Below are positions 34,974 to 64,000 of a DNA stretch of 64,000 nt, in pieces. Within the stretch, counting starts at the first letter, position 1, and each line of letters begins with the position of its first letter. Under the pieces are notes generated by a model, which was not told the DNA's origin, searched no databases, and was given only the letters and a program-made list of their open reading frames with translations. The position numbers and the translations under genes were made by a program. Source of the stretch: an uncultured delta proteobacterium (lineage in GTDB: Bacteria; Desulfobacterota; Binatia; UBA9968); NCBI GenBank assembly GCA_963840855.1, contig CAWJBB010000065.1:75856-139855 (forward strand). Reading direction: 5' to 3'.

Positions 34974-35088
34974 CTACGTTCGTAGCTTATCGACGGGTCT
35001 CGGGTGTCAGGTGTCAGGTCGGAGCAAGGAGCATGAACTCAACACCTGAACATCTGAAACCCAAGACACGATGATAGAAGATCAGGCA

Positions 35089-35877: not shown

Positions 35878-35974
35878 TTTCTAGTTGGGGAGGGGGACCT
35901 GGAACTAGAAACTAGAGACTAGGAACCCAAGACCCAAGACGGCGAACGCTGGCAGCAAAAGGAGTGGCGCGCTC

Positions 35975-37039: not shown

Positions 37040-37160
37040 GGCGGCGTGGGGCCGTGGAACTGGCCCAAGAATAGTCTCGGGTCTAGGATTTTGGGTCTCG
37101 AGTTCCCGTGCCCAACCCTAGACCAGAGACACGAGACCCTAGACTGCGAAGAGGTATCCG

Positions 37161-47828: not shown

Positions 47829-48092
47829 TTGTCCTCCTCTCAAGAAGAGATAAGCGCGATAGAAGGCCCGACCGAAAACCGCCACGTTAAGCGATTAAAC
47901 TGTCATTCGGCTTCGTTGCCGAACCAAAATGGGTTAGCAAACGGGAAAGCGTTCTGCTTATCTCACCGCCCGCCTTTCTCTGTCAAGCCTTACTTAAGAA
48001 CCGTAGGGCAATCGTTATGCCAAGACCAGCAAAGACGGGGATTTGAGAAAGTACTTGTAATAACGGAAGAATTTTGCGGACCAGAGTCGACG

Positions 48093-48266
48093 TTACTGAT
48101 GAAAGATCCGGCGGGGTGTAGTTAATTTGATATACCCCTGTAGCAAATTTGATCCACCGGACTTCGCAGTTTGAGTGCATCGCCCGGACGCAACGCAGCG
48201 AAATCCCGGACACCGTTGCGAAACCCCCGCAGCATGAACCAAGATATTGGTATCGAGCAGGATCAC
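48093..48266 (-). pseudogene. Truncated VapC/PIN toxin
   Basis: GTG overlapping the antitoxin stop gives VILLDTNILVHA; similarity is lost at a degenerate REP near 48181-48212. Confidence 0.55.
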
Positions 48267-48499
48267 TTCAAGATGTCTCGATAGATGTTCTCACGCCTCA
48301 AGCTACCACGGACTTTCCCGGTATAAACCCCGAAGCGCCCGCCTCTGCTTCGTTGCGCTCTCTCGTGATCCCCTCTGAGGTAGGCTCGAATGGCTGTCTC
48401 TACGATCTCTTTGAGGGTCATGTCCTGGTCCAACGCCAGCCTTTTAATCTGCCGATACAACTCCTTTTCCAATACAATGGTAGTTCTCAAACTTTCCAT
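48263..48499 (-). CDS. Ribbon-helix-helix antitoxin-like protein
   Basis: RTTIVLEKELYRQIKRLA..MTLKEIVETAIR; coupled to a PIN N-terminus. Confidence 0.7.
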   Translation of the reverse strand: MESLRTTIVLEKELYRQIKRLALDQDMTLKEIVETAIRAYLRGDHERAQRSRGGRFGVYTGKVRGSLRRENIYRDILK

Positions 48500-48710
48500 G
48501 CCGCCAAACCTCCAGGCGTTAAGGCTTACATAAATATGCTTTTATGTCAGCACATATTCACTTTCCTTTGCCTCTCAACTTTGCGCAGGGTGGTGAGCAT
48601 AGTCGAACCACAAGTCGCCAAGTCGGATTCGTTTTTCCTTCGCGCCTTTACGTCTTTTCTCGAGATATTTTTGGTTGCGGCTTCGCCGCGCTAGACTCTT
48701 TGTGGTTAAT

Positions 48711-50285
48711 TCAGAATCCCAGCGCGCAGCCGCCTTTGCGCGGGTCGGACCCGCCGACGAAAGCTCCGGAGTCGGGATGAATCAGGATCATATGGGCGCC
48801 GCCGAAACTTTCGGGATTGCCGCCGACGACTTGATGGCCTCTGCGAGATAATTCCTGCTTAACGTCAGATGAGAACTCCGGCTCCAATCCAACCTTTGTT
48901 GCCTCGATGTGATTGAACCGCGCCGCCGAGATCGCTTGTTGCGGGGTCATGCCGTGATCTATCAAATTGGCGATGATCTGCGCCTGCACTTGCGGCTGAA
49001 CATGCCCGCCTTTGAGACCTAACGCGGCGTACGGCTTGCCGTCTTTGAAAATCATGCCGGGCATGAGCGTATGCACGCAGCGTTTGTGCGGCCCAATGCA
49101 GTTAGGATGCGCTTGATCCAGCGAGAAAAGATGCCCGCGATTATGCAAGATGATTCCAGTCTCAGGCTCGACAACTCCCGAACCGAAGCCCATAAAGTTG
49201 CTCTGGATGAAAGACACCAGATTGCCGTCACTGTCGGCTGCGGCGACGTACTCGGTATCCGTCCCCGCGCTGATCGATTGGTAGTCATTAGCGGCCCGAT
49301 CTTGTTGGATCTGGCCGCGCAGCTTCTCCACTCGCGCTTGTGCCAACAGACCGTGCACCGAAACTTTCATGTGATCGCGATCCGCTAGCTGTCGATCGCG
49401 ATCCATAAACGCAAGCTTCTTCGCTTCGATCATTAAATGCAGCGCCGCCGCGCTCCCCGGACCCAAAGCTTTGAGTTCGAAGCCCTCGAGAATCTTGAGC
49501 ATCTCCAACGCAACGAATCCCTGCGTGGCCGGCGGCATCTCATAGATGTCATAGCCGCGATAATTGGCGGTGATGGGCTCCACCCAATCCGAACCATGAT
49601 CGGCAAAGTCTTTCAGCGTAAAAAGTCCGCCCAGTCTTTCCGAACACCGAACAATCTTTTCGGCAACGTCGCCCCGGTAGAAATAATCCGACCCTTCATC
49701 GGCGATCCGCCGTAGCGTCTTCGCCATGCGCGGGTTCTTAAAAATTTCGCCTGCCTTGGGTGTGCGGCCATTGATCAGATAATTCGCGCGCGCGCCTTCA
49801 TCAGCCTTCAAGCTCGATTCCGACTCATGCCACGACTGCGCGGTCAGCTCGGCGACCGGAAACCCTTCCTCGGCATGGCGAATCGCCGATCGCAAGACAT
49901 CGCGGAGACTTTTCGTACCGTAGGAATTGAGCAGCGTTGTCCAACCATGCACTGCGCCGGGAACGGTCACGGCGTGAATCCCGCGCTGCGGCATCGCCGT
50001 GAATCCGTTCTTGCGGCAAAACTCTAAATCCGCGCCGTAGGGCGATCTCCCGCTCGCGTCCAATGCCTTGATCGATTTTTCCCGCGCCGAATAGAACAAA
50101 CAGAAGGCATCGCCGCCGATACCGATCGACATCGGTTCGACGACGCCCAACACCGCCGCCGTCGCGACGGCAGCGTCGATGGCATTGCCGCCGTCCAGCA
50201 AAACTTGCACGCCGGCCAAGGTTGCCAGGGGCTGGCTGGACGCTACCATGCCGTTTTTAGCTACGACCGAAAATGTTCCAGGCAT
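48711..50285 (-). CDS. ggt: Gamma-glutamyltransferase family protein (cytoplasmic type)
   Basis: GGNAIDAAVA, VTVPG, nucleophile region GTDTEY, FIQSNFMGFGSG, GGSDPRK. Confidence 0.9.
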   Translation of the reverse strand: MPGTFSVVAKNGMVASSQPLATLAGVQVLLDGGNAIDAAVATAAVLGVVEPMSIGIGGDAFCLFYSAREKSIKALDASGRSPYGADLEFCRKNGFTAMPQRGIHAVTVPGAVHGWTTLLNSYGTKSLRDVLRSAIRHAEEGFPVAELTAQSWHESESSLKADEGARANYLINGRTPKAGEIFKNPRMAKTLRRIADEGSDYFYRGDVAEKIVRCSERLGGLFTLKDFADHGSDWVEPITANYRGYDIYEMPPATQGFVALEMLKILEGFELKALGPGSAAALHLMIEAKKLAFMDRDRQLADRDHMKVSVHGLLAQARVEKLRGQIQQDRAANDYQSISAGTDTEYVAAADSDGNLVSFIQSNFMGFGSGVVEPETGIILHNRGHLFSLDQAHPNCIGPHKRCVHTLMPGMIFKDGKPYAALGLKGGHVQPQVQAQIIANLIDHGMTPQQAISAARFNHIEATKVGLEPEFSSDVKQELSRRGHQVVGGNPESFGGAHMILIHPDSGAFVGGSDPRKGGCALGF

Positions 50286-50471
50286 GATTCTTCCTCGTGA
50301 TCATGAAAATCTTGTTAGAATTGCTGGCACATTACCTGCTCCCAAGGTGCTGAAAAACCTCCGTTCACCCTTCGACCAGCTCAGGGCGAACGGAGTTTGC
50401 TTTGATTCACTAATAAATTTCCGTTCATGCTGAGTACGTCGAAGCATAGAATTCCTTATTTCAGGAGCTTG

Positions 50472-51492
50472 CTAGCGCGTTTTTAAGATCTGCGCATAAA
50501 GTTTTACCACTTCATCGTGGCCCTTGTATTCCTCGGGGTGCACGACGTAGCGCTTGTAGCCGCGAAAAAGCCGCGCCGGCTTGGGCTCGACATCGCTGCG
50601 CGACGGAATGCGTTGAAAATCCCAGAGCTTTTCCTGGCCTTCCTTGGATAGGGTAAAATCGATGAGCAGTTTGCCCGCGTTGGGATGAGCAGCTTTCGCG
50701 CCAAGCATTACCGTGTTCACCGAAATAATGGCGGGCTCCAGCGGTAACCAATCAATGGGCGCGCCCTTCTCGGCTAAGTTTTGAATGATATTGGCATAGG
50801 CGATGACCAGGGGAAACTCGCCGGCGGCGGCGAGCTGAGCGCGAACCGTGCTACCCCGCATCGTCACCGGCTCCTGCTCCGCGAGTCTTTTGAGGTAAGC
50901 CAAAGCCTTCTCCTTACCCCACACCGAGATCAGTCCCTGTAAAAATGTCGTATAACTATCGTCGAGCGAAATTTTCCGTCCCTTCCAGCGCGGTTGCAAC
51001 AGCTCCTCATAGGTCCGCGGCACGGCTTCACGCTTCAACTGTCTGGTGTTGTAACCCAGAACAATGGCGTTAACGTAAACGGAGGTCCAGTGATGTTTGG
51101 CGTCCTTTAGGTCGGCAGGGATCATCTTTCTTTCCGGGGAATCATACGGCGCCACTAGACCCATGTTCCATCAACGGCAAAAAGATCTCCCCCGTGCCAT
51201 GGACCACGTCGAAGAGGTATTTTCCGGCTTTCGCCTCGGTCGTTATTCGGTTGAGCAAAGCGCCCCCGCCGGAACGGAACACATTGGGTCTCAGGAAGGG
51301 ATATTTTTTCAGGAAGCGGTCCATGAATTCTTTGCTCTGGTCCAAACTCATGGTGGTGTACCAGACGATTTCCCCTTCGCGCCGCGCGGCATCGACCACC
51401 TTGGGGTCCGGACTGTCTTGAGAATGAGCAGCGCCGGCAAAAGGTATAATCATGCACCCCAGGAGAAGAAACTTCCGCGAAAAACCTTTCAT
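50472..51492 (-). CDS. Extracellular solute-binding protein (frameshift near 51165)
   Basis: AARREGEIVWYTT in one frame; YNT..PRTYEELL.PRWKG..HPNAGKL in the next. Confidence 0.82.
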
Positions 51493-51716
51493 CAGCTTCC
51501 TCCTTAATCCTCCGCGGCACTTACCTAAATTACCAGTCTGGAGTCTGGTAAACCTTTTGTGTTATTCCGGCCAAGCTGGCGATAGCTATCGGCGACCCGG
51601 AATCAGGGTAGGGGCGGGTTTAAAACCCGCCCTACAAGCCCGCCTGCGCGGGAATGACGACTGATGGAGCGCTGACTTCTCCACCGGATTTCTGAGGCCG
51701 CATATTGGGATGAATC

Positions 51717-52070
51717 TTATTTCGGCCAGCGCAGATGAACCGCCATATCCACCCAGTGGCCATCGGGGTCCTGCACTCGGTGGTCGGAGTCTTTATCGGA
51801 CTTGGAGTCGATGTTCACGGGGAAACCATTGGCTTCGAGTCTGCGTTTAATCTCCTCAAGATCGTCGACTTCGAAGCCGAAATGATTGATGCCTTCCCGC
51901 TGATCTTCCCGCTTGACCTCGATGAGCGCGATATTGACGTCGCCATCCGACATGTAGATTGCGCCGCCGAATCCGCGCTTGGGTTCCAGTCCGAAAACTT
52001 TCTGGTAAAACTCGACCATCCTCTCGCGGTTTTTCGTCATGACCGCCACATGTCTCACCTTGGGTCGCAT
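51717..52070 (-). CDS. VOC/glyoxalase-family protein
   Basis: RHVAV..FYQKVFG..GINHFGFEVD..DPDGHWVD. Confidence 0.88.
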   Translation of the reverse strand: MRPKVRHVAVMTKNRERMVEFYQKVFGLEPKRGFGGAIYMSDGDVNIALIEVKREDQREGINHFGFEVDDLEEIKRRLEANGFPVNIDSKSDKDSDHRVQDPDGHWVDMAVHLRWPK

Positions 52071-52098
52071 AGTTATTCCTCCTCTACAATTGGGGTTT

Positions 52099-53248
52099 TT
52101 ACAGAGAATAGAGCTTCGCGGCGTTGTCGAATAAAATTTCCCGCCTCTCATCGTCAGGCAACCCGCCGAAACACGCATCGATGTGCCGGCGAGAACTGGG
52201 CCAGGTCGAGTTGGCCAGCGGAAAGTTGGTCGACCATAGAATGTTCGAGGTGCCGAGATATTTTCGAACCCGCAGACTCGCGCGATCGTACCAGCAGGTA
52301 AAATAACACTGGCGCCGGAAAAGCTCCGAGGGTTTCAATGAATATCCTTCCGACTCCAAGCCGTCGGCCGCCGATTGATAGTCGGCGTACTCGATCTCGT
52401 AAGCGCCCCAGCCCAACGAGCTTTCGGCAAACACGACTTTTAGATTCGGAAAACGGTAGAGCACGCGCGAGAAAAGAAAATTTGCCAGCACGGCAATCGA
52501 ACTGACCGAACGCACTACCCCGCTGAAAGCCGCCGCCACCGCCGGCGAAAATCCTGCGCCGGGGCGCATTTGAATTCTGGGCGAAGCTCCCGCGTGAAAA
52601 CAGAGCGGCACATTCGAGCTCCTCACAGATGGCCCAAAGCGGATCATAAGCCGGCTCGTTAACGTGGGGCACGGCGCGCAGCTCCATCGGCGAGGCCGGA
52701 TAAATCACTCCTTTGTGGCCTTTGGCCACGGCGCGCTTGATCTCCGCGACGGTTCGCTCCATCGGCCAGATGGGCACGATACATTGGGGCACGAAACGCG
52801 GACTGATGCTCGCCCATTCCTCGATGAGCCAGTCGTTGTAGGCTTGCACGCATGCCAACTCTAAATCGGGATCTTCAAGCTTGCCAAAGCTCTCCGCCGC
52901 CAGGCCGCCGACGATCGGGTAGAGCACGGAGTAATCGACGTGGTCCAGGTCCATGGCCTTGAGCCGTTCCGCTGGGTCGTAAGCCATAGGCGGCACCTCT
53001 TCCCAGCGGCGCGGCTCGCGCTGAGGGTCGCCCATGAGCGCGCCGGCGATGGCGACTCCGGGCAGTGAAACGCGCTGTCCTCCGACTACCCAGCACTCGC
53101 TGCCGTCCGATTCGGTTATGACATGCGGTATGCCGTCGCCCCACTTCTGTTTGGACATGCGCGATGTCCAGACCTCGGGGTGTTCCTGCACATGGTCGTC
53201 GGCGCTGATCAGGCCGTACTTCAGTTCCATGGAATTTTGTCCATTCAT
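52099..53248 (-). CDS. Amidohydrolase-2 family protein (frameshift near 52615)
   Basis: ISADDH, AYNDWL, YDPLWA, then LCFHAG, RFPNLKVVFAESSLGW, WSTNFP. Confidence 0.85.
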
Positions 53249-53261
53249 CGGCGTGCCGAAT

Positions 53262-54404
53262 TCAAATCAGCCGATAAAGCCGCGCGGCGTTGCCAAACAG
53301 AATTTTTTCTCGATCCGCCGTTGGCACTCCCGCGAGGGAATGCTCCACGGCATCCCAAGAAGTTGGATAGGTCGAAGTGATATGGGGGAAATCGGATTCC
53401 CACAGAATGTTATCGACGCCGATATAGTCGCGTAGCTGCACGCCCACCGTCTCGAACCAGAAATCCACGAAGATTTGGCGCCGGAACAACTCGCTGGGTC
53501 TCGTGATCAATCCCTCGCTCCAAAGGTGGCGCTTTTGCCATTCGTGATCGCAGGCCTCGAGGACGGAACTCACCCAGCCCAAGCCGGTCTCGGCGAAGAC
53601 CCAATTGAGGCGCGGGAATCGTTCCAGCATGCCGGAGAAAATCAGGAAGGGAATAATTTGCGTCGCCGTACAAAAATTGCGCAGGGTGGAGACACAGTGC
53701 GACTGTCTGCGGGTGAAACCTTCCCAACGCGGCAAGGACAATTGACCTGCGAGCCCCGCGGAGGCATGGAGATGAACACCGACGCCGAGTTGCTGGCAAG
53801 CATCCCATAACGGATGCCAAAATGGATCGCCAAGGCTTTTTAGCCCCTTGGCCGCAACGCTCGGATCCGCCAGCATGTTGATTCCCATATGGCCGGCTTC
53901 GACCGCGCGCTCGGCTTCGGCGACGATGGTTTCAATCGGGCTCATAAAAGGCAATACCGCGAGTGGAATGAAGCGTTCGCTCACCCGGCGGAATTCGGCC
54001 AGCGCGTCGTTGTAAGCGCGCACGCAGGCCAGCTCGAAATCCGCATCGTCGTAGAAAAACGTTCCTCCCGGGCCATTGGGGAATAGCACTTCGGCATCGA
54101 CGCGGTCGCGGTCCAGCGCCTTGAGCCGGTGCGCGGGGTCATAGACTTCAAGCGGCACTTCCTCCCAGCGCTGCGGGTAGTATTTTCGGTCTGCCATCGC
54201 CGTCGGACAGTTGCAGACATTTCCTCCCTGGATCTCGCCATGCACCACCCAGCGCTCGACGGCGTGAGCGAATTTTTCTTCGCGCACTTCGACCACATGA
54301 GGTATGCGGTCGCCCCACTTGGATCCCGACATGCGGCTGGTATAGGCGTCCTTGCCGAGCTGGCCGTGGGAATCCGAGCTGATTAAGCCATATTTGATTT
54401 CCAT
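53262..54404 (-). CDS. Amidohydrolase-2 family protein
   Basis: ISSDSH, VHLH, ERFPRLNWVFAETGLGW, WESDFPH. Confidence 0.9.
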   Translation of the reverse strand: MEIKYGLISSDSHGQLGKDAYTSRMSGSKWGDRIPHVVEVREEKFAHAVERWVVHGEIQGGNVCNCPTAMADRKYYPQRWEEVPLEVYDPAHRLKALDRDRVDAEVLFPNGPGGTFFYDDADFELACVRAYNDALAEFRRVSERFIPLAVLPFMSPIETIVAEAERAVEAGHMGINMLADPSVAAKGLKSLGDPFWHPLWDACQQLGVGVHLHASAGLAGQLSLPRWEGFTRRQSHCVSTLRNFCTATQIIPFLIFSGMLERFPRLNWVFAETGLGWVSSVLEACDHEWQKRHLWSEGLITRPSELFRRQIFVDFWFETVGVQLRDYIGVDNILWESDFPHITSTYPTSWDAVEHSLAGVPTADREKILFGNAARLYRLI

Positions 54405-54442
54405 GTTCTATTCCTATTGCGGAACGACTACAGTCAATTGCC

Positions 54443-55606
54443 TTATTTTGCTTTTTGCTCCTTGGTTTCCACAACTTTCTTGACGAAATCAAAAACCGGA
54501 GTCAGATCCTGCCATTCCGGGCGACTGACATCAAAGTACCGCCTTCCCTCGATGAGCCGATTTGCCGGGTCGACATCGTCCTTGGGAATATCAATCCTGC
54601 GGGAATTAACCGCATCATCAGAAGTCCCTTCCTTTTGCACGGCAATTTGTCCCTTGCGAGACAGGTACCAGTTGATGAAAATTTTGGCGGCATTGGCATG
54701 GGGAGCTTTATTGGCTAGACTTAGCGATCCGCTAAGGGATATACGTCCCCCTTCCTTCCAGGCGCTGGTGTCGAGGGTGCCCACCGGCAATCCCTGCTTC
54801 TTCGCTCGAGCGATTTCATTGTTCCGGCAACCCAGACAAATGGAATAATTGCCCTGGGCGAGCCAGTCGAGCATCTGTCGCGGGTCCGCGCTGAAAGTTA
54901 CCTCCATACTGCCGAAGAATTTCTTCAAATATTCCTGACCCAGTTCCGGATGATAGTAAAGGAACTGCAACGTCGAACCCATAGTCGTCGATGTCGGGGT
55001 TAAAGAAACTATCTTGCCCTTCCATTTAGGATTGAGAACGTCCCAGTAAGATTTGAACTCGCTAGGATTTATCAATTTGCTGTTGTAATCGAATACCGAG
55101 CTTGGATTAGAGAGGTACACGAAAACATATTGACGTTCGGGATCGACGAATGGATACTCTCCTCCTAACCATTTCGAAGGATCCAGGACCTCGGGCAGGA
55201 TAAAAGTCGGTTTGAGCGGATCCAAAGCCTTCGCGCGGTAAAGAACGTTGAAGGCGGTGTTCGAGCCAACAGCAACCACGTCGGCCAGATATTTCCCGGC
55301 CCTTCTTTCCGCAATGATCCTCGCCGCTACGTCTGATGATCTCCCTCCGATCGAGGTTACCTTAATCTCAGGATATTCCGTCTTGAATGCTTCCAAAACT
55401 CGCTCATAAGTCGAAGCATAGACGGTAATTTGGCCTTCTGACTTCGCGGCCGCGAGCGTTTTCTCCCATTCTTTTTTCCAGTCTGTCTGACCATGGGCTG
55501 CTACCACTACCAACTGGGAGACCAGTCCGCACGAAGTAATTAAAGCAGCAAAAAATTTTGCTTTTGCGCACCGCATGATCGCTTGCCTCTTTATGAGTGC
55601 CTCCAA
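54443..55606 (-). CDS. Extracellular solute-binding protein
   Basis: Signal peptide; WEKTLAAAKSEG, AERRAGKYLAD, APHANAAKIFINW. Confidence 0.85.
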   Translation of the reverse strand: MEALIKRQAIMRCAKAKFFAALITSCGLVSQLVVVAAHGQTDWKKEWEKTLAAAKSEGQITVYASTYERVLEAFKTEYPEIKVTSIGGRSSDVAARIIAERRAGKYLADVVAVGSNTAFNVLYRAKALDPLKPTFILPEVLDPSKWLGGEYPFVDPERQYVFVYLSNPSSVFDYNSKLINPSEFKSYWDVLNPKWKGKIVSLTPTSTTMGSTLQFLYYHPELGQEYLKKFFGSMEVTFSADPRQMLDWLAQGNYSICLGCRNNEIARAKKQGLPVGTLDTSAWKEGGRISLSGSLSLANKAPHANAAKIFINWYLSRKGQIAVQKEGTSDDAVNSRRIDIPKDDVDPANRLIEGRRYFDVSRPEWQDLTPVFDFVKKVVETKEQKAK

Positions 55607-55734
55607 TGAATCAAGTCCGATTCCGGGGCGATCGTTTAGCCCCGGTTTCTAAACACATATGGCGGCATTCGCTACTCGGAGACGGCAGCGTTGTCTTAAA
55701 ACATTGAACTTTGAACCTTGAACCCGGAACCTGT

Positions 55735-56433
55735 TCAAGCCGCCGCCGACTCCGCGATCAGCGCCATGGCCGTCGCCAGCGCGCAACGATAAGCGCGGTC
55801 GATGGTTAGACTGTCCTGGGCCGCGCGGATCACCGCCTGCGCGGTTCTCTCGTCGACGACATAGTGATCGTAGATCGGCTCGAACATATCCGAATGATCT
55901 TCATCCGCCACCATATGCACTCGCGTGTTGATATCGAGCGATTCGATCGTTCCGCCTTGATCGGCGATGCGCTTGTGCGCGAAGCGTGCGGTAAAACCGC
56001 CGCCCTTCACGATGGCCGGATTGTTCTTGCGCTCGGTGATGTGGTTGACCGTGAGCGACTCGATCCACGGCCTCGTGGACGCCAGATACATCCAAGCCAT
56101 GATCGCCGCTCTGGCGCCGGGGTGGAGGTTAGTCTCCGCGGTGGCCTCGGCCATCTGCTGGTCGGTCAAATGCGCCGACCCCATGCGCTTGTCAAAAATC
56201 AACTCGTCTTTCTCGTGTTCCCAAATCGCCCGTTTGACGTCGAGCGGCGCATTCACCGCCGCCGCCCCCCAGCAATCGCGCCGGCTCTTGATATAATGCG
56301 GATAATGCAGATCCCAAATTTTCTGTCGCGCCGGCGTGAGTTTCACGGCAAACAATTGCCGGTACTCCGGAGTTTCGAAGTGGCGATTAACCATTTCATC
56401 GAGCTGCTCTCTGGTTTTCGGCCATAGACTCAT
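55735..56433 (-). CDS. Heme-oxygenase-like diiron protein, HDO-3 (divergent RRDCW group)
   Basis: KSRRDCW, EHEKDE..AH, ITERKN, VHMVADEDH. Confidence 0.68.
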   Translation of the reverse strand: MSLWPKTREQLDEMVNRHFETPEYRQLFAVKLTPARQKIWDLHYPHYIKSRRDCWGAAAVNAPLDVKRAIWEHEKDELIFDKRMGSAHLTDQQMAEATAETNLHPGARAAIMAWMYLASTRPWIESLTVNHITERKNNPAIVKGGGFTARFAHKRIADQGGTIESLDINTRVHMVADEDHSDMFEPIYDHYVVDERTAQAVIRAAQDSLTIDRAYRCALATAMALIAESAAA

Positions 56434-56760
56434 GAAAGCCTCCCTGTCCTGCTTCCTAAGAACGCTGCTGAATTACCGAACCAAAAGGCACGATTCCTTG
56501 TTTCGCCAGACTGCGCGAAAACTCCGTTCATGGTTCGACTGGGCTCACCACGAACGGATATGAGACCTTACAAATCAAACATTTAGCCGTTCGCCCTGAG
56601 CTTCGTCGAAGGGCTCCTAAAGAGTTTTCACACAGTCTGTCGCTCGGCATGACAGTCGATGCGTAATCGTCAGGAGTGCGTCATCCTGAGCGTCAGCGAA
56701 GGATCTCGGCCTCGATATACCCATTACTGCACCACTCCAATACTCCATCTCCCCGTTCTT

Positions 56761-57470
56761 TCACAACGGAATCTTCGCTTGCGCCTGCGCGATCCCTTTG
56801 CGGTACATGGCGTTGAAAGCGAGGGAGTCTCGGGCGGCTTGGATCGCCGGCGCTTCTTTCTTGCCGGTGGCGTGTTCGGCGAGGAACGGCAAAAACATAT
56901 CGCTATGCTTCTCGTCTGCTTGGCTGTGCGCCTGGAGGTTTGGGATCTCCTTCCACGAAAAGCCCATCTCGTCCATCCATTTTTTCGCCATGCGCGTGGA
57001 CTGTCCACCGCCCAGGTCGCCCAACAAGCGGTCATCGTTGCACCATTCCGTGATGGTCATACCGGCCAGCGATCGGTCCACGGCATTTCACTGGTCATCC
57101 ACGACCAGGCATAAAGCACCATGCGGGTTTCGGGCAAGGGTTCGGCGTTGATAATCTCTTCGGGTTCCAGGCCCACCGATTTCCCCTGGCGAATAATCAG
57201 GTGAAGGTGACCATAGTCGGAAAAATCATCACGGATAATTTCTTCGTACTCATGCTCGAGGATGCGCTGCTTGACCGCCATTATCGGGCAGTTCGCCGAG
57301 ACATGCGCCCAACAGTCGCGCCGGTGTCGGACGAACAAACTTTGCTGCTGCACCATGACAGCCGCTCGCGGCTTGTTCATCTTGATGGAAAAATAATATT
57401 CCAGTTCCGGCGAACGGATGTAGTCTCGCACCATCTTGCCCAGGCGATCTCGCCACTGCTTCTCGGTCAT
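56761..57470 (-). CDS. Heme-oxygenase-like diiron protein, HDO-4 (frameshift near 57085)
   Basis: RHRRDCW, HEYEE..YGH, then TEWCNDDR, AHSQADEKH; start overlaps the SBP stop (TAATG). Confidence 0.72.
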
Positions 57471-58459
57471 TACTTGCCTCCCCTGTAAAGCTTGTCGATG
57501 AAGCCTTCCTGAACCAAGCGGTCCACGATACGGTTGTCAAAGAGTTTCTCTTTGGCCGCCCCCTGGCTGCTAACCATCTCCAAGATGGTATCCACCGCCG
57601 CGGGATCGACCCGTGGAGTGGAGTCGAGATACTTGGTGACAAATTCATGGTGCGTTTCTGCCGCGCCTCCCCTTTGTCCCATGTACTTCGTGAGCATCTT
57701 CAGCGCCTGCGGCTTCCTGATTTTTAACGCAGCGATACCTTCGATGTAAGCCGCAACAATTCCTTCCACCGATTTCGGCGATTTTCGATAGTATTCGTTG
57801 CTGACGGCCAGCAGATTCATAGAAAAGGGAATTCCCAGTTCCGCGGCATCCACAAGCAGCTTCGCCTGGGGTCCAGGCGCCTGGGAAGCCACGCGGCCTT
57901 CCGCTTGTCTGGCGCGAAAACCAACATCGGCCTCGACTACTCCGCCGAATTGCCGAATCTCCACTTTCCCATCCAAGCCGAGCTTGCGTAGCACTAGCCG
58001 CGTAACAAAATCGCTGGTGGAGCCATAGCGCGTGATGGCGAGCGTTTTGCCCTGAAGTTGCTCAGCGCGTTGAATTTCCGGCTGCACCCATAGGGCCATG
58101 CCCGGCCGGCTCGTGTTACTGGCGACCGCAACGATGGGAGCGCCCTTGAGGGCGGCGGCGATCACTGCGTTGCTCGCGCCCAGCGCCGCGTGCACGCTGC
58201 CGCCGACCAGCGCCTGGATTGCCGTGGCTCCGGAGCTGATATGAACGAGATCGACATTCAAGCCGTTTCGTTCGAAAGCGCCGATCTCCTTTGCCATCCA
58301 GACCCCGGCCACACTCGGACTGATGGCGGCGTAGGCGATGGCGATTCTTTCTTTAGGAGCCTCGCCGGCGTCGGCATAGAATGGAGCGACTAACACTGCG
58401 CTTAGAGCGAGGCTACCCACCGAGAATATTTGTCGGATGCAAACTTTGATGCCGTTCAT
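57470..58459 (-). CDS. ABC substrate-binding protein (SsuA/NMT1-like)
   Basis: Signal peptide; WMAKEIGAF..GL, LQGKTLAITRYGS, EGFIDKLY. Confidence 0.87.
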   Translation of the reverse strand: MNGIKVCIRQIFSVGSLALSAVLVAPFYADAGEAPKERIAIAYAAISPSVAGVWMAKEIGAFERNGLNVDLVHISSGATAIQALVGGSVHAALGASNAVIAAALKGAPIVAVASNTSRPGMALWVQPEIQRAEQLQGKTLAITRYGSTSDFVTRLVLRKLGLDGKVEIRQFGGVVEADVGFRARQAEGRVASQAPGPQAKLLVDAAELGIPFSMNLLAVSNEYYRKSPKSVEGIVAAYIEGIAALKIRKPQALKMLTKYMGQRGGAAETHHEFVTKYLDSTPRVDPAAVDTILEMVSSQGAAKEKLFDNRIVDRLVQEGFIDKLYRGGK

Positions 58460-58672
58460 TGGATTGAGCTCGCCAAAAGACTATGACCTTCGATCCCACG
58501 GACTGCGCAAAACAAAAAGTTAGTCATGCCCGCGAAAGCGGGCATCCAGGCCTATCCCAGTGCGATCACGGGTAAAAAGACTAGATTCCCCCCGTGGAAG
58601 ATCGGGTCATTCTTCCACGGGGCGGGAATGACCAACAAGACCCCGTTTCTTAAACCGAACCAAATCAGGCGT

Positions 58673-59379
58673 TCACGGCAGCTTCTCCATCGCGTCGGCC
58701 AGTCCGGCCTGATACATGCGGTAGAGTTCTTCCGACTCCTTCGCCGCCTGGAGAATGAGCGCTTGGTTTTCTTCCTTGCCGTATTCCTCCCAGACCGGCA
58801 GAAACATATCCACATGTCCCTTGTCGGCTTCGCGATGGGCTCGCCAATTGGGCAAGTCGTCCCAAGTGATGCCCAACTGATCGACCCAGCGCTGCCCCAT
58901 GCGAAAGGCGTGGCCGCCGCCGATATCGGCGAGGAGCCGGTCGTCCTGGTTCCATTCGGTCATGCTCATGGCCGAGAGTCCGGCGAGCCAGTTTTGCTTC
59001 TTGCAGATCCAACCCCATGCATACAGCGTGGCCGTGGTACTCGGGAGCAGCTTGGCATCCAAGATATCGTCGGCGCGCAAACCTATGGCTTTACCCTGGC
59101 GAATAATCAAATCGAGATGTCCATGTTCGGAGTGCTGGTCGCGGATCACCTCCTCGTACTCATGGGCGAGAATTATTTGCTTCACTGCCAGCAGCGGGCA
59201 ATTCCCCGAGACATAGGCCCAGCAGTCTCTGCGGTGCCGGACGTAGAGCGAAAGCTGAGAGAGAATCAGTTGCGCTCTCGTCCGGGTGATAGGAATGGAA
59301 AAATAGCGCTCCAGCTCCGGCGACAGCATAGTTTGCCGGGCGAGTTCGCCGAAAGCCGCGGACCAACCCTAGCATCCAT
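58673..59379 (-). CDS. Heme-oxygenase-like diiron protein, HDO-5 (5' frameshift)
   Basis: RHRRDCW, HEYEE..EHGH, TEWNQDDR, AHREADKGH. Confidence 0.72.
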
Positions 59380-59469
59380 TATGAATTCCTTCAGTTTCAG
59401 CAGTTATGCCGGGTAAAATCGGGTTTCGAGTTTACCGGTTTAAACGCTCAGACTCGATAACCCACGACT

Positions 59470-60189
59470 CTAAACTGATTTGCACGCCAACTTTTCCATT
59501 TCGTTGGCGATTCCAAAACGGAACATTTTGAGCAGCTCCATGGATTCCCTGGCGGCTTGGTAAGCCAGCGCTTCTTTGTCGCCGGTGGCGAATCGCTCGA
59601 GGTCTTCCAGAAACATGTCGCTATGTTCTTCATCCGCCTGGCTATGAACTTTGAAATTGGGCATTTGCTCCCAGCCAAAGCCAAGATCGTCCATCCAACG
59701 CTTGGCCATGCGGCTCGACAGCCCACCGCCGACATCGTGCAGCAACCGGTCGTCGTTGGCCCATTCGGTGACCGTCAGAGAGGTCATCCCTTCCAGCCAG
59801 CTTTTTTCTCGCGTCATCCAACCCCACGCATAGAGAGTGGCCATAGTCGAGGGCAAGGGTTCGACATTCAGAACCTGATCGGGCGTCAATCCCAACGCCT
59901 TTCCCTGGCGCACGATCAATTCCAAATGCCCATGCTCTGCGTAATTGTCTTTGATGACCTCGCCGTATTCATGCTGCAGGATCTTTTGTTTTACCGACAT
60001 ATGCGGACAGTTCCCTGAAACATAAGCCCAACAATCGCGCCGGTGGCGAATAAAGAGACCCAACTGGGTGATCAAGACCTGAGCGCCGGGCTTGGTGATC
60101 TTGACCCGAAAATAATGATCCAATTCCGGCGAGCGCATCGCCTGGCGGACAACTTCGCCGAGCTCGCGCCGCCACTCAGCTTGCTTCAT
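59470..60189 (-). CDS. Heme-oxygenase-like diiron protein, HDO-6
   Basis: RHRRDCW, HEYGE..EHGH, TEWANDDR, VHSQADEEH. Confidence 0.75.
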   Translation of the reverse strand: MKQAEWRRELGEVVRQAMRSPELDHYFRVKITKPGAQVLITQLGLFIRHRRDCWAYVSGNCPHMSVKQKILQHEYGEVIKDNYAEHGHLELIVRQGKALGLTPDQVLNVEPLPSTMATLYAWGWMTREKSWLEGMTSLTVTEWANDDRLLHDVGGGLSSRMAKRWMDDLGFGWEQMPNFKVHSQADEEHSDMFLEDLERFATGDKEALAYQAARESMELLKMFRFGIANEMEKLACKSV

Positions 60190-60303
60190 AATAAATTTCC
60201 TCGATTGCTTGGTTAAAGTGTTTGTCTATTTGAGATCCCTCACTTGGTTCGGGATGACGCCGCGAATGAGAATGAACACCGATGCCAGAACAAAGCAGCG
60301 GCG

Positions 60304-61371
60304 TCACTTATATAACTTTTCTACGAACCCCTCTTTAATGATCCGGTCGATGACCATGTTGTCGAAAAAATCGTTGACCGGGAGCTCGCCCTTCCCTTCC
60401 CAATTGAGCACCGTTTGAATGACCGCGGGCTCCACCCGCGCGTGACGGTCGAGGTACTTGACTGCATATTCGTAGGCTTCGTCCAGCGAATCGCCGGCCC
60501 CGAGCAAGTATTTCGCCAGAACCTTATAGGCCAGATCCTTCCTGGTTCTGAGCGCCGCAACGCCTTCGACATACGCTTTGAGCATCCCTTCGACGGTTTT
60601 CGGTGAGGTTTTGTAAAAATCCCGCTTTACCGCGATGAGATCCATGGAAAAAGGAATTCCCAAGTCCGGCAGGTCCACCAGCATGCGAGTTTTTGGACCG
60701 GGTTTCATGCTTCTCACCGCGCCGGCGACCATGCCGGTGCGGACGGCCACATCCACTTCGCGGGTGCCGCCCATCGGCTGAATTTTGACTTTGTCCTGGA
60801 GGCCGAATTTTTCCAGCACGAATTGCGTCAAAAAATGAGTCGAGGAACCGTGGCGGGTAATCGCAAGCACTTTCCCCTGAAGCTGTTCAGGCCGGGTGAT
60901 TTCTGGCTGAACGAACAAACTCATGGCCGGCCGGTTGGTGATGCTGCCAACGGCAACCAATGGAGCGCCCCGGAGAATCGAGCTGACGACGGCATTGCTC
61001 GCGGCAACGGACATATCCAGATTGCCGCCCACCATCGCCTGGACCGTGATGCTTCCGGAGCTGATGTAAATCAGATCGGCTTTCAAGCCTTGCTTCTCGA
61101 AGGCTCCCGTCTCCTTCGCCATCCAGACTCCGGCAAAGATCGGGCTCACCGCGGAATAGGCGACGGCAACCTTCGCCGGCGTCTGCGCCGGCGAAGCCTT
61201 GGGTAGTGCGAGCAGGAGGATTGAGAGGAGAACGCAGCCCAGCACCTGAGCTAATCGCCCGCAAGAAGCGGCGCGCCGAGCAGAGCACAAATCTCTCCGT
61301 CTCCTCTTTTGCAAAGAGGGGTTATGAATCACCCGAGGATCTTGAACTCTGCAATTAACCTCTTGGTACAT
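60304..61371 (-). CDS. ABC substrate-binding protein (paralog of 57470-58459)
   Basis: YSAVSP..WMAKETGAF, LQGKVLAITRHGS, EGFVEKLY; start approximate. Confidence 0.85.
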   Translation of the reverse strand: MYQEVNCRVQDPRVIHNPSLQKRRRRDLCSARRAASCGRLAQVLGCVLLSILLLALPKASPAQTPAKVAVAYSAVSPIFAGVWMAKETGAFEKQGLKADLIYISSGSITVQAMVGGNLDMSVAASNAVVSSILRGAPLVAVGSITNRPAMSLFVQPEITRPEQLQGKVLAITRHGSSTHFLTQFVLEKFGLQDKVKIQPMGGTREVDVAVRTGMVAGAVRSMKPGPKTRMLVDLPDLGIPFSMDLIAVKRDFYKTSPKTVEGMLKAYVEGVAALRTRKDLAYKVLAKYLLGAGDSLDEAYEYAVKYLDRHARVEPAVIQTVLNWEGKGELPVNDFFDNMVIDRIIKEGFVEKLYK

Positions 61372-61403
61372 GACTCTACCAGAATTTTTAAAGAAGCAGG
61401 CTG

Positions 61404-61529
61404 GCAGGCTGCTCAAAACGATCTCAGAGGCGAGGCGCGCGAAGATCGATGAGCGGAGGCGTACTCCTGTACGTTGACGCGAAATCGATCAAGCGCAACG
61501 AAGCATATGAGTCGTTTTCAGCAGCCTGC
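61404..61529. mobile_element. MITE-like element of about 126 bp with 18 bp terminal inverted repeats
   Basis: GCAGGCTGCTCAAAACGA ... TCGTTTTCAGCAGCCTGC (one mismatch). Confidence 0.65.
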
Positions 61530-61880
61530 CTAGATCGGCCAACCGTGCTCGGACACATCCACGCGGTTGCCTTCGTTGTCCTTGATCCAACTTTCGGCAA
61601 CGGCGCCGAAAGTGTTGGCTTCAGCTTTAGTGTCGGCGATCTTCTCGATCTCGCTCACGCTGTCGACCTTGAAACCAAAGTGGTTGATGCCCCAGGGATA
61701 CTTATCGGTGCTGATCAGCGCGAGATCGAAATGGCCGTCGGAAAGATAGATCGTGCCGCTCGGCCCGCGATACTTTTCTTCCATGCCGAAAATTTTCTTG
61801 TAATACTCCGCGCTCTTCTCTCGGTCGGCGACGTTAAGCGCGATATGCCTGATTCTTGGCTTTTCCATATAATCCTCCAT
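61530..61880 (-). CDS. VOC/glyoxalase-family protein (paralog of 51717-52070)
   Basis: RHIAL, YLSDG, GINHFGFKVD, DNEGNRVD..GWP. Confidence 0.88.
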   Translation of the reverse strand: MEDYMEKPRIRHIALNVADREKSAEYYKKIFGMEEKYRGPSGTIYLSDGHFDLALISTDKYPWGINHFGFKVDSVSEIEKIADTKAEANTFGAVAESWIKDNEGNRVDVSEHGWPI

Positions 61881-62080
61881 TTAGATTCCTCTCACGGTCT
61901 TCAACTCCATCTTCCATTCTCGATCTTCCATCCTCGACTAGTGAACTGTAACGCCCTGCGTTGCCGTTCATGGTTCGAGAGCTCACCACGAACGGTTTGC
62001 CTTGACTCGTCCTCACCCTGAGCTTGTCGACGGGACTTCTTCGAACTTAAACGTGAAACCAAGCTGTCACGCCTAGTACG

Positions 62081-62795
62081 CTAGTTCAACGGCACCTTCT
62101 CCATCGCCCGCGCCACTCCCTCGCGATAGAGCGCGAAAAGATCGAGAGACTCCTTTCACGGCGTCGAGCGCCGTCTTTTCTTTTTCTCCCGTCGCGTATT
62201 CTTCGAGAAACGGTAGAAACATGTCGCTATGCTCTTCATCCGCCTGGCGGTGCACGTCGAAGTTCGGCATGTCGCGCCACTGCATCCCCATATCCTCCAT
62301 CCAGCGCTTGCCCATGCGCGTGGAATGGCCGCCGCCGAGATCGTTCAACAGACGGTCGTCGTTGGTCCACTCGGTCACCGTCAACGCTGCAAGCCCTTCG
62401 AGCCAGCTTTTCTCCCTTGTGATCCATCCCCAGGCATAGAGCGTCGCCGTGGTCGTTGGAATGGGTTTTACGCTCAAGCATTCCTCCGGCGTCATGCCGA
62501 CCTTTTGCGCCTGCTTTACGATGAGTTGGAGATGGCCGTACTCGGAATACTGGTCTTTGATGACTTCGCCAAATTCATGTTCGAGAATTTTTTGCTTGAT
62601 CGCCATGATCGGACAGTTTCCCGACACATGGGACCAGCAATCCCGGCGGTGGCGAATATAAAGCCCGAGCTGGGAAATCATGAGCTGCGCCCGCGGCTGG
62701 TTCATCTTGACGGAAAAATAATGCTCCAGTTCAGGCGAGCGCATATGGTCGCGCACCATCTCGCCGATAACCTTGCGCCATTCCGGGACCTGCAT
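62081..62795 (-). CDS. Heme-oxygenase-like diiron protein, HDO-7 (3' frameshift near 62152)
   Basis: RHRRDCW, HEFGE..EYGH, TEWTNDDR, VHRQADEEH. Confidence 0.75.
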
Positions 62796-63028
62796 TAGGA
62801 CTCTCCTTCAATCTTATCCTGTTAACGTAGGCATCTCCTGTATATAAAAATTCGCCCCGGCTGCCAAACGGACTCCCGTCTGCAAAAACCTCATGGCCTC
62901 ACCCGAGGTAAAAAAGGCTCGAGAACCATTCGACGTCTCACTCCATTTTAGGTTTTCGTCTGCGGGGCCGCTTTTAGATAGAACTGAGAGTGCTCTGATT
63001 GTTTTTCGAAACAACGCTGTTTCCCGCG

Positions 63029-63778
63029 CTACAGGGCGGGACCGATCAGCTCGCGGCGCAAGAATTCCGTCACCAGCGGCCAGGCTAGGTCGGCCAGATA
63101 AGGCTGGTACCCATCCGATTCGGTGGATGCGAAACCGTGATTGCCGAAGTGAAAGTAATGCCACTCCAACGGCCGGCCGTTGGCGTGGAAGTTCTCCATC
63201 AGTTTCACTTGGATGGGAAAAGTGCTGGTGCGATCCTGACCGCCAAAGAGCACCATCGACGGACATTTGATTTCACGCGCGGCGTCGTAAGGATGGCGCG
63301 GGCGAATTTTTGTCGGCTCCTCTTCCCGCACCGAGGGATAGTAGGCGACGAACGCGCGCGCCGCCGGTGTTGCCGCGCAGAAGTGGATGCCGATTCTGCC
63401 GCCCATGCAGTAGCCGATGACGCCGACCCGCGAACCGTCGACATCGTTGCGCGAAAGGCAATAGCGCCAGCCTCGGTCGATCACGCGCACGAAATCGGGG
63501 TCCGGCGTTTTGTTTTGAATCTCGGTGCCCGTGTCGATGTGCTGCTCCGCCGGGTAGCCGAGCATGTGATACAGATTCGGAATCACAGTCGTGTAACCAA
63601 GCTGGGCGAATTTGTAAGCCGCGTTCTTTAGATATCCGGTCAATCCAGAGTGCTGGTGGATGAGTAGCAAGCCGGGACCCCGCTCGCTGCGCTCGGGATG
63701 AGCGATATACCCCTCGATGGCGTCCTTTTCCTCTTTCAACCCACGGGTAACGATTCTCGTCATGGATGGGTCCTCCAT
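63029..63778 (-). CDS. Dienelactone hydrolase family protein
   Basis: LIHQHSGL, IGYCMGG, YYP, NHGF. Confidence 0.9.
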   Translation of the reverse strand: MEDPSMTRIVTRGLKEEKDAIEGYIAHPERSERGPGLLLIHQHSGLTGYLKNAAYKFAQLGYTTVIPNLYHMLGYPAEQHIDTGTEIQNKTPDPDFVRVIDRGWRYCLSRNDVDGSRVGVIGYCMGGRIGIHFCAATPAARAFVAYYPSVREEEPTKIRPRHPYDAAREIKCPSMVLFGGQDRTSTFPIQVKLMENFHANGRPLEWHYFHFGNHGFASTESDGYQPYLADLAWPLVTEFLRRELIGPAL

Positions 63779-64000
63779 AGGATCTATACTTCACCGCAGA
63801 GACGCAGAGTTCACAGAGATCGGAGTATTTCTTGATTAAGAACTTTTTACTCTGCGCCCTCAGCGCCTCCGCGGTGAGTTCTCTTCTCGATCGATCCAAC
63901 CAGATTAGCCACTGGAAAATTTGCGCAAGCTGCGAAAACTTTTCAGCACAGTAGTGCGAAGGCCACGAAGCCGGACGGGTTTTGCCGCTTCGCCGCGCTG

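Follow-up and report, generated by a model that had tools for sequence, protein, structure and literature searches.

The stretch analysed here, which we call the window, makes up the final 64 kb of contig C65 in a genome bin (7.1 Mb in 93 contigs, 94% complete, 8.3% contaminated) of an uncultured soil bacterium of the Binatia group. Our subject is a run of genes at positions 48711-63778 that encodes five paralogous heme-oxygenase-like dimetal proteins (HDOs; HDO-7 to HDO-3) interspersed with exported solute-binding proteins (SBPs). The list of open reading frames (ORFs) and a Pfam scan place all genes of the run on the minus strand, in the transcription order DLH, HDO-7, VOC, NMT1 SBP, HDO-6, HDO-5, NMT1 SBP, HDO-4, HDO-3, SBP_bac_1, two Amidohydro_2 genes, VOC, SBP_bac_6 and GGT, in agreement with the order and families given in the original prediction, a note made from the sequence.

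The first gene, DLH (63029-63778; PF01738, 118 bits), encodes an alpha/beta hydrolase of the dienelactone hydrolase family. It is followed by HDO-7 (62073-62795; PF14518, 42.8 bits; PF03070, 34.2 bits), by VOC-a, a 116-aa member of the glyoxalase/dioxygenase superfamily (61530-61880; PF00903, 36 bits), and by NMT1a, an NMT1/SsuA-type exported binding protein (60304-61416; PF09084, 76.9 bits). HDO-6 (59470-60189) is intact at 239 aa and served as the reference for the model and the searches described below, while HDO-5 is an open frame of 231 codons (58673-59368; PF14518, 35.5 bits) in which the ORF from the first ATG spans 58673-59329 (218 aa). A second NMT1/SsuA-type exported binding protein, NMT1b (57470-58459; PF09084, 61 bits), precedes HDO-4 (56761-57470), which lies in two frames (57057-57470 and 56761-57081), and HDO-3 (55735-56433), a divergent, intact paralog of 232 aa that scores 236.7 bits against the family profile. 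The remaining genes encode the SBP_bac_1/8/11-type exported binding protein SBP1 (54443-55606), the Amidohydro_2 TIM-barrel protein AH1 (53262-54404), its paralog AH2 in two frames (52099-53248, composed of 52154-53248 and 52099-52647), the small glyoxalase/FosA-like protein VOC-b (51717-52178; PF00903, 55 bits), the SBP_bac_6-type exported binding protein SBP2, again in two frames (50472-51492, composed of 51142-51492 and 50472-51164), and, last in the run, GGT, a gamma-glutamyltransferase-family Ntn hydrolase (48711-50285; PF01019, 517 bits); HDO-4, SBP1, AH1, AH2 and SBP2 were likewise assigned with Pfam.

Spacers beside the HDO genes measure 101-327 nt, except at the TAATG at 57470, where the NMT1b stop overlaps the HDO-4 start; this overlap, which the original prediction had read as translational coupling, is real. 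Two further claims held as well. There are seven HDO-type genes in 31 kb when HDO-1 and HDO-2, which belong to a second module described below, are counted, and no reductase turned up: among 59 window ORFs, most of at least 100 aa, Pfam detected no reductase, ferredoxin or Rieske family. An Rfam scan of 48000-64000 at E<=1 gave no match, and consensus scans for promoters and terminators found no excess over shuffled sequences (9 vs 8.2 and 18 vs 19.6, respectively).

The paralogs share a heme-oxygenase-like fold and a conserved set of metal ligands

The motifs RHRRDCW, VS(G/A)NCP, HE(Y/F)xE..GH, TEWxxDDR and HxxADxxH all occur in HDO-7, HDO-6, HDO-5 and HDO-4, while HDO-3 carries the variants KSRRDCW, TERKNN and HMVADEDH, just as the original prediction had described four like paralogs and one divergent member. 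The same four proteins match PF14518 (iron-containing redox enzyme) and PF03070 (TENA/THI-4/PQQC), the latter at 22.9-37.3 bits compared with a cut-off of 22. HDO-3 has no Pfam match, yet it aligned to the family profile with all six ligands. The HDOs lack hydrophobic, signal-peptide-like N-termini.

From a 43-sequence alignment, AlphaFold gave a very confident model of HDO-6 (predicted local distance difference test 97.1, predicted template-modelling score 0.93), which is all-helical and forms the seven-helix heme-oxygenase-like bundle. When it was compared with the PDB by Foldseek, 4lqx (SSO2700) ranked first, followed by CADD, PqqC, Sden_3740, BesC, TenA, FlcD, UndA and HrmI, with a probability of 1.00 to CADD, BesC, UndA, FlcD and HrmI and template-modelling (TM) scores of 0.6-0.82. 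The ligands in HDO-6 are E77, H88, E142, H182, D186 and H189; in the 43-sequence alignment, E77 and H88 are invariant and the other four at least 90% conserved, and all six columns are fixed in the five orthogroups defined below. A PDB profile search places these columns on the EE...H, YES and H-x3-D-x2-H stretches of CADD, which bear its ligands. The paralogs carry the 3-His/3-carboxylate set (E...H, E, H-x3-D-x2-H) that, in the passages of PMC13108848, defines most HDOs. Model, Foldseek matches and conserved columns all bear out the CADD-like HDO fold and dimetal ligands that had been predicted.

The Arg/Cys block is equally constant, with R50, R51, C53 and W54 invariant in all five orthogroups. 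R50-R51-x-C53-W54 sits on the helix that precedes the first one bearing ligands, and a more distant branch of the family has FPRWLA at this place.

The paralogs could instead be metal-free TenA/PqqC-type enzymes, for example ones that salvage the thiamin pyrimidine from ThiY-like NMT1 SBPs. TenA and ThiY form a known salvage pair, the PF03070 scores exceed their cut-off, and the HDOs have NMT1/THI5-type SBPs as neighbours, one of which weakly matches ThiY (E = 8e-4), a protein that binds N-formyl-4-amino-5-aminomethyl-2-methylpyrimidine (FAMP). However, PF03070 also covers PqqC and HDOs, and in the PDB profile search the best TenA homolog reached E = 0.0025, compared with 5.7e-33 for 4lqx, with SSO2700, the p-aminobenzoate synthases, PqqC and BesC ranking well before any TenA. 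The PqqC model TIGR02111 (cut-off 240) gave 16.8 bits for HDO-6 and no match for the other HDOs, and five paralogs are hard to square with a single vitamin-salvage step. Because the metal ligands, which metal-free relatives do not need, are conserved in 43 diverse members and in all five orthogroups, a metal-free mechanism is disfavoured, and we consider it very improbable.

We give still less credence to self-sacrifice of the CADD type, in which the paralogs would build p-aminobenzoate or a different cofactor fragment out of their own residues. Among solved structures, CADD and the Nitrosomonas-type 4-aminobenzoate synthase do rank with the closest (profile E = 1.7e-27 and 2e-20; TM 0.82 on the target for CADD), but the corresponding model, TIGR04305 (fol_rel_CADD, cut-off 200), scores 23.4-31.6 bits for HDO-7, HDO-6 and HDO-5 and does not match HDO-3. 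Passages of PMC9522330 name Tyr27 as the sacrificial tyrosine of CtCADD; it is not kept here, where CADD F26-Y27 falls on E22-L23 of HDO-6, in the N-terminal part in which the alignment is least certain. Folate genes are absent from the window ORFs scanned with Pfam, and five paralogs accompanied by SBPs are a poor fit to a single-turnover cofactor synthase.

With the CADD and PqqC models of NCBIfam matching at 17-32 bits rather than 200-240, the RRDCW proteins constitute an uncharacterised subfamily, as the original prediction had supposed. The ESM Atlas lacks the window protein, and a homolog there (P0080) gave only generic 'iron-containing redox enzyme' clusters.

The five-paralog array is conserved within one bacterial order

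A protein search returned 599 homologous 90%-identity clusters, of which those listed come mostly from soil metagenomes; many bear the automatic JGI name 'PQQ biosynthesis protein C', and one the NCBI name 'iron-containing redox enzyme family protein [Candidatus Binatia bacterium]'. The family is small, since in an exhaustive HMMER search only 300 50%-identity clusters, many of them fragments, reached E<=1e-3 among 1.84 billion representatives.

Scanning species-representative genomes yielded 29 related loci (cited by L numbers), mostly in genomes titled Candidatus Binatia, with the order DLH-(SBP)-HDO7-VOC-SBP-HDO6-HDO5-SBP-HDO4-(SBP)-HDO3-(AH1-AH2-VOC-SBP)-GGT. After HDO3, relatives have either GGT directly or AH1-AH2-VOC-SBP-GGT. 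In 19 of the 29 loci the HDO5-type gene comes directly after the HDO6-type gene, and 23 contain an HDO3-type gene; many of the loci are short contigs cut on one side. DLH orthologs with 81-97% identity precede the array in relatives, and VOC-a is kept beside HDO-7. Recurrence of one gene order in 29 loci from other genomes lies far beyond chance. The original prediction had named a neighbourhood not conserved elsewhere as one ground for its refutation, and the neighbourhood is conserved.

Of 116 profile hits from the window and loci L001-L031, the 101 that covered at least 200 of 241 profile positions were used for a tree, and 15 partial hits were dropped. The tree contains five orthogroups, given here with their rows and Shimodaira-Hasegawa-like approximate likelihood ratio test (SH-aLRT) values: HDO3 (21 rows, 99), HDO5 (20, 98), HDO7 (12, 98), HDO4 (18, 99) and HDO6 (22, 100). 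Within each orthogroup, the median pairwise ratio of nonsynonymous to synonymous substitution rates (dN/dS) was roughly 0.06-0.16 (35-45 pairs per group, kept from up to 60 random pairs if 0.05<dS<2.5), values that indicate purifying selection on all five paralogs. Of 41 genomes from the same genus, family or order, 36 have the family, at 1-11 matches per genome (this count includes the source genome and the unpublished G159 and G165, which both have it; without those two it is 34 of 39). No match came from 150 genomes sampled elsewhere in the phylum. The subfamily is confined to a single order of uncultured soil bacteria, titled Candidatus Binatia at NCBI, where its five old paralogs keep a fixed gene order.

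Parts of the array have been lost independently: L017 lacks HDO5, its SBP and HDO4, L010 lacks HDO7, and the AH1-AH2-VOC-SBP block is optional. In addition, eleven alignment columns are fixed within each orthogroup yet differ between orthogroups, among them columns 76 and 144, which adjoin E77 and E142. Because modules are lost independently and these columns are orthogroup-specific, we favour substrate specialisation over one obligate complex, and the paralogs probably take different but related substrates, one of the two options that the original prediction had raised.

Its other option was that the paralogs are subunits of one hetero-oligomeric HDO with a single substrate, for example in alpha/beta pairs of HDO-6 with HDO-5 and HDO-4 with HDO-3. 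Tandem pairs do recur, as in the HDO6-HDO5 adjacency noted above; a pair lies 14 nt apart in L025 and another ~50 nt apart on contig C40 of the source genome, with many more in relatives. The neighbouring AH genes, moreover, resemble DitZ and PtmU3, whose class includes the two-subunit AibH1H2 (passages of PMC13154177). On the other hand, the full ligand set is present in all five orthogroups, so none looks purely structural; L017 keeps HDO7, HDO6 and HDO3 after losing the rest, and L010 dispenses with HDO7; and the spacers of 101-327 nt speak against coupling outside the SBP/HDO-4 junction. We therefore regard a hetero-oligomer as unlikely. A complex prediction for HDO-6 with HDO-5 (score 0.15, mark 0.32) was used neither for nor against binding.

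In the source genome as a whole, 20 places match HDO-6 at E<=1e-3, with the split HDO-4 pieces counted apart. Elsewhere in this genome, G000:C40:338576-339924 (L031) holds a tandem HDO3-like pair (33-38% identity) together with an HDO-2-like gene (58%).

Frameshifts in the assembly and a second array copy

Single-base indels are present in five genes of the run (HDO-7, HDO-5, HDO-4, AH2 and SBP2), and a molybdenum (Mo)-hydroxylase gene at 42856-45050 is also split. Compared with two close relatives, HDO-4 is missing 1 nt near 57074, and its orthologs in L029 and L001 are intact. In HDO-7, a 1-nt insertion near 62153 puts the last ~25 codons, which encode the last helix, out of frame. HDO-5 has lost its start to an indel near 59365, the copy on contig C87 beginning 13 codons earlier in a comparison of two rows. 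AH2 is frameshifted near 52615, and SBP2 changes frame near 51150.

If these indels were real mutations rather than assembly errors, the array in the source genome would be a decaying, partly pseudogenised copy. Such decay would agree with the density of indels, five within 15 kb of the run and one more in the Mo-hydroxylase gene, and with the second array copy on C87, which at 93-95% DNA identity could make one copy dispensable and which itself has a stop (TAA) within HDO-6. However, single-base indels are the type typical of long-read consensus errors, comparable split matches occur in other loci on long contigs of metagenome-assembled genomes (L003, L006 and L028), and purifying selection acts on the orthologs, which are intact, while the 8.3% contamination of the bin means that C87 may come from a second strain. 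Four contig pieces listed across the HDO-4 site, a single one per public run, show one gap each against the window within their span. Because of these pieces and the intact orthologs elsewhere, we think that consensus errors are more likely than decay, which we consider doubtful but by no means far-fetched.

The C87 copy (G000:C87:160001-172234, L030) comprises the upstream half of the array at a contig end and may reflect either a duplication or the presence of a second strain in the bin. It has ~3.2 kb of extra DNA between DLH and HDO-7, containing ABC_sub_bind fragments and a PemK/MazF-like toxin gene.

Orphan binding proteins and partner enzymes

The four exported SBPs of the run have hydrophobic, signal-peptide-like N-termini. 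The true start of NMT1a is probably internal, since the listed TTG start falls within a dispersed repeat described below. In NCBIfam, NMT1a scores 57 bits with SsuA_fam, under its cut-off of 163, and SBP1 and SBP2 give PhnS-like matches of 33-42 and 59 bits, also under the cut-off; in the PDB, NMT1b weakly matches TauA (5e-5) as well as ThiY, and SBP1 weakly matches Fe(III)-binding SBPs (E = 2e-6). Naming the SBP ligands from the PDB matches was dropped, the matches being too weak.

The alternation of HDOs with SBPs had been a centrepiece of the original prediction. The order stands, but its significance is weaker than it seemed, because the source genome contains at least 150 NMT1-family genes over the Pfam cut-off (249 candidates, 150 scored, in 7.1 Mb). 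This is a massive expansion of NMT1/SsuA-type genes, many without a nearby permease gene: BPD_transp_1 permeases have 129 matches in the genome and 0 on the window's contig. The window SBPs are thus 'orphans' in a genome full of binding proteins, and SBP-HDO adjacency is meaningful only because the same orthologs hold their places across genomes.

One assignment changes, namely that of the two amidohydrolase-2 genes to a family acting in ring cleavage and downstream steps, because neither ring-fission hydrolases nor decarboxylases are their nearest relatives. The nearest PDB entries are DitZ and PtmU3, both for AH1 (E = 1.4e-31 and 1.9e-30) and for an intact AH2 ortholog, L029:5126-6280 (E = 2.8e-35 and 2.4e-28), with ACMSD and LigW well behind at ~1e-11. 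In the passages of PMC13154177, the class to which DitZ and PtmU3 belong, the amidohydrolase-related dinuclear oxygenases (AROs), is defined by an N-terminal D-x-H and a C-terminal D-x-P-H-x-D/E. The first is present as D-S-H in AH1 and D-D-H in AH2, aligned with D-D-H of DitZ. The second is incomplete: AH1 has D-F-P-H-I-T, ending in a Thr that is kept in L012, L014 and L015, and the motif of AH2 is degenerate, reading N-F-P-L-A-N in the window and N-F-P-M-A-N in L029. PF00355 (Rieske) has no match among the scanned window ORFs; a Rieske ferredoxin neighbour is common, not universal, for AROs. Because DitZ and PtmU3 are nearest and D-x-H is kept while the C-terminal motif is incomplete, we assign AH1 and AH2, as judged from sequence, to a branch derived from this dinuclear-oxygenase clade that fails one of its defining features. 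They may be oxygenases with a remodelled second site, a catalytic and structural pair, or hydrolases.

VOC-a matches HpaD, catechol 2,3-dioxygenase and ArsI weakly and far under all cut-offs, and VOC-b gives weak ArsI/FosA matches, again under cut-off; the real start of VOC-b is probably an internal Met, since the listed start overlaps AH2 by 80 nt. GGT scores 408.9 bits with TIGR00066, above the cut-off of 357.85, and has no recognisable signal peptide. Its closest PDB entry is 2nlz, 'cephalosporin acylase' (E = 5e-123), and a putative Thr nucleophile, Thr344, lies at the autoprocessing site, that is, at the aligned small-subunit N-terminus (residue 3 of the small subunit of solved GGT aligns from residue 346).

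Flanking genes and related modules

Additional enzymes recur beside the array. Upstream of DLH in L003, L006, L010, L020 and the C87 copy lies a two-subunit thiamine pyrophosphate (TPP) enzyme (L030:1729-2846) that is nearest to sulfopyruvate decarboxylase ComDE and phosphonopyruvate decarboxylase, under their cut-offs; the window does not reach this region, as the contig stops at 64000. A xanthine-dehydrogenase-family Mo subunit is encoded upstream of DLH in L010, L017, L018, L028 and the C87 copy. On the downstream side, the UbiD-family decarboxylase at 38766-40370 (minus strand, Pfam) has orthologs with 91-94% identity downstream of GGT in L010, L017 and L019, directly after GGT in two relatives and after the Mo-hydroxylase gene in L017. 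In the window, an IS200-like element (Y1 transposase, 40546-41073) and the frameshifted xanthine-dehydrogenase-family Mo-subunit gene at 42856-45050 lie between the array and this syntenic UbiD gene.

A second module, on the plus strand at 31700-38141, encodes HDO-1, UbiD, an NMT1 SBP, HDO-2, a TctC-like protein and another NMT1 SBP (Pfam), and its make-up follows the same logic as the array. HDO-1 (31700-32443, plus strand) scores 27.6 bits with PF14518, just under the cut-off of 28.9, and HDO-2 (35071-35877, plus strand) 37.5 bits; both belong to a much more distant branch, with ~27 bits against the family profile. The protein encoded at 35975-37039 shows 28-38% identity to stretches of six relatives' loci, including L024 and L025, and L025 has two TctC-family genes (L025:1897-2934 and 4225-5247). 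A complete chromosome of another family contains a reduced core of TctC-SBP, VOC, HDO3-like, GGT, HDO, HDO and VOC.

A search with a five-sequence alignment located the distant 'FPRWLA' branch in 68 soil-metagenome loci. In 19 of these loci, 97 neighbouring ORFs were scanned; the HDO has UbiD next to it in 4 loci, an NMT1 SBP in 4, SBP_bac in 3, a short-chain dehydrogenase (SDR) in 6, TctC in 2 and a BNR protein in 1. In L033, L035, L038, L083 and other metagenome loci, the 'FPRWLA' HDO stands with tandem UbiD, NMT1 or SBP_bac, and SDR genes, which together appear to be a recurrent, undescribed module.

Repeats, transcripts and the far end of the window

The spacer between VOC-a and NMT1a contains a dispersed repeat of ~125 nt with 18-nt terminal inverted repeats (61403-61530; inverted arms, 0 expected by chance). 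It has 39 matches in the source genome including the window copy, 15 of them near full length at 72-100% identity, has no Rfam match, and looks like a miniature inverted-repeat transposable element or a repetitive extragenic palindrome. Contigs pile up over it to very high depth in three soil/sediment DNA runs and to a lower peak in a single rhizosphere RNA run. Depth spikes and many loose contig ends, for example at 61964 and 61995, also mark the intergenic segments 61875-62081 and 58356-58562, which may be further dispersed short repeats; most aligned contigs have a C inserted behind 61981. In a rhizosphere RNA library, contigs of 90-99% likeness map to HDO-4, HDO-5, HDO-6 and the two NMT1 genes, a weak hint of expression. 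At the other end of the window, a CRISPR-Cas locus ends with genes for a Cas3 HD domain and Cas6 (2-1218); ORF6N- and WYL-domain genes come next.

Proposed role of the array

Taken together, these data indicate that the array is most likely part of an uptake-linked oxidative catabolic (or scavenging) island and not a natural-product cluster. We assign a probability of roughly 0.5 to the reading that a lineage-restricted, uncharacterised HDO subfamily functions in uptake-linked oxidative catabolism, with UbiD, Mo-hydroxylase, VOC, DLH and GGT as its recurrent partners. We prefer uptake-linked oxidative metabolism to natural-product synthesis because of the SBPs, the UbiD and Mo-hydroxylase flanks, the reduced core in another family, the neighbours of the distant branch and the absence of biosynthetic families.

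The biosynthetic alternative, in which the array is a gene cluster for a small secreted metabolite, has the history of the superfamily behind it. The BesC pathway uses gamma-glutamylated intermediates, which would fit the GGT gene. HDOs number more than 10,000 sequences, and the passages of the 2026 mini-review PMC13108848 describe about a dozen characterised members, all of them in natural-product or cofactor synthesis and mostly acting on amino or fatty acids. In the run, however, Pfam detected no nonribosomal peptide synthetase, polyketide synthase, ligase, methyltransferase or exporter family, and neither in nor beside it is there a halogenase or pyridoxal phosphate enzyme; the run includes four uptake-type SBPs; and UbiD, Mo-hydroxylase, DLH, VOC and SDR recur in relatives and the distant branch. 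A biosynthetic cluster is, in our judgement, distinctly unlikely.

In the catabolic reading that we prefer, the exported SBPs would capture small anionic solutes in the periplasm and hand them to importers encoded elsewhere. Each cytoplasmic HDO would bind two metal ions (Fe/Fe or Fe/Mn), reduced by an unlinked, general cellular reductant, and would activate O2 to oxidise the solutes by hydroxylation, oxidative decarboxylation or C-C/C-N cleavage. VOC, DLH, the DitZ/PtmU3-like TIM-barrel pair, the GGT-type amidase, UbiD and Mo-hydroxylase would then process the products. We infer this metal content, O2 chemistry and catabolic role from fold, ligands and gene context, and the substrate class likewise: carboxylated aromatic or N-heteroaromatic acids, or sulfonate/phosphonate-type, amino-acid-like solutes. 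UbiD, Mo-hydroxylase, VOC, DLH and amidase-type GGT are the kinds of enzyme used on carboxylated aromatic and N-heteroaromatic compounds; the SsuA-like and PhnS-like SBPs and the ComDE-like decarboxylase would fit sulfonates or phosphonates instead.

Several observations weigh against a catabolic role. Such a role would be without precedent, because all characterised HDOs are biosynthetic in the passages of PMC13108848 and likewise in those of PMC13232832. The window ORFs scanned with Pfam include no reductase, ABC permease or ATPase; all NCBIfam matches of the HDOs fall far under cut-off; and the SBP ligand hints are weak and divergent, pointing to taurine or FAMP, 2-aminoethylphosphonate and Fe(III). 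Because the genome has so many NMT1-type genes, some SBP-HDO adjacency is expected anyway, and the dN/dS values are rough because dS is near saturation (1.3-1.8). HDO-7, HDO-5, HDO-4, AH2 and SBP2 are frameshifted as assembled and the C87 copy carries its TAA inside HDO-6, so the pathway in the source genome may be partly dead unless the indels are assembly errors. Finally, the RNA contigs may reflect DNA carry-over and may derive from relatives rather than from the source strain.

More tentatively, the array may hold the first catabolic HDOs, as five substrate-specialised dimetal entry oxygenases for the solutes of the orphan SBPs, alongside a further unconventional kind of metallo-oxygenase, the DitZ/PtmU3-like pair, whose second metal site would be remodelled. 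Candidate solutes would be carboxylated (hetero)aromatic acids or compounds of the sulfonate/phosphonate type. If this were true, the wider 'HDO + SBP + UbiD/SDR' module would represent a widespread, unrecognised aerobic degradation strategy in soil metagenomes. HDOs are a young enzyme superfamily, and a conserved, catabolism-like five-paralog array would extend both its chemistry and its physiology. The array also provides structure-function studies with five active sites, naturally diverged on a single scaffold; it offers SBPs as handles for substrate discovery, a DitZ/PtmU3-like protein pair flagged by its altered metal motif, and light on the metabolism of Binatia, which are abundant uncultured soil bacteria.

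Comparison with known systems

Fold, ligand set and superfamily are already known. The literature searched describes neither the subfamily nor its restriction to one order, the conserved five-paralog array or the catabolism-like, SBP-linked setting, and it contained no paper on the subfamily or on HDOs with Binatia, Binatia with NMT1 SBPs, or HDOs with catabolism and UbiD.

AH1 and AH2 share with the AROs (DitZ, 8uyr; PtmU3, 6omp; SfbO; AibH1H2) their best PDB matches and the D-x-H motif, but differ in the altered C-terminal motif and in having no Rieske ferredoxin gene among the scanned window ORFs. The metal-free PqqC and TenA resemble the paralogs in fold and in PF03070, whereas the PqqC model scores 16.8 rather than 240 bits and no pqq genes lie nearby. 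UndA, BesC, SznF, HrmI, FlcD, AetD and RohS have the same fold, the same 3-His/3-carboxylate motif and presumably the same activation of O2 at a labile dimetal site (passages of PMC13108848), but they occur as lone genes or domains within natural-product clusters, have amino or fatty acids as substrates and are 14-17% identical to the paralogs.

SSO2700, a TENA/THI-4 domain protein of Sulfolobus solfataricus (4lqx), is the best match in both sequence and fold (E = 4e-12 in the single-sequence search and 5.7e-33 in the profile search), and its alignment shows the ligand columns E..H, E and D..H. It differs in being an archaeal protein of 322 aa with an extra N-terminal part and ~22% identity, deposited by structural genomics without a known function. 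CADD (Chlamydia trachomatis CT610; 1rcw and 8va9; Nitrosomonas-type, 9pj4) shares the seven-helix fold (TM 0.73-0.82), a similar length and six aligned ligands with the paralogs, but is 16-17% identical, is separated from them by the TIGR04305 cut-off and has its Tyr27 replaced by Leu in HDO-6. Whereas CADD is a single gene in a folate context, its relatives described here form a five-paralog array with SBPs and hydrolases.

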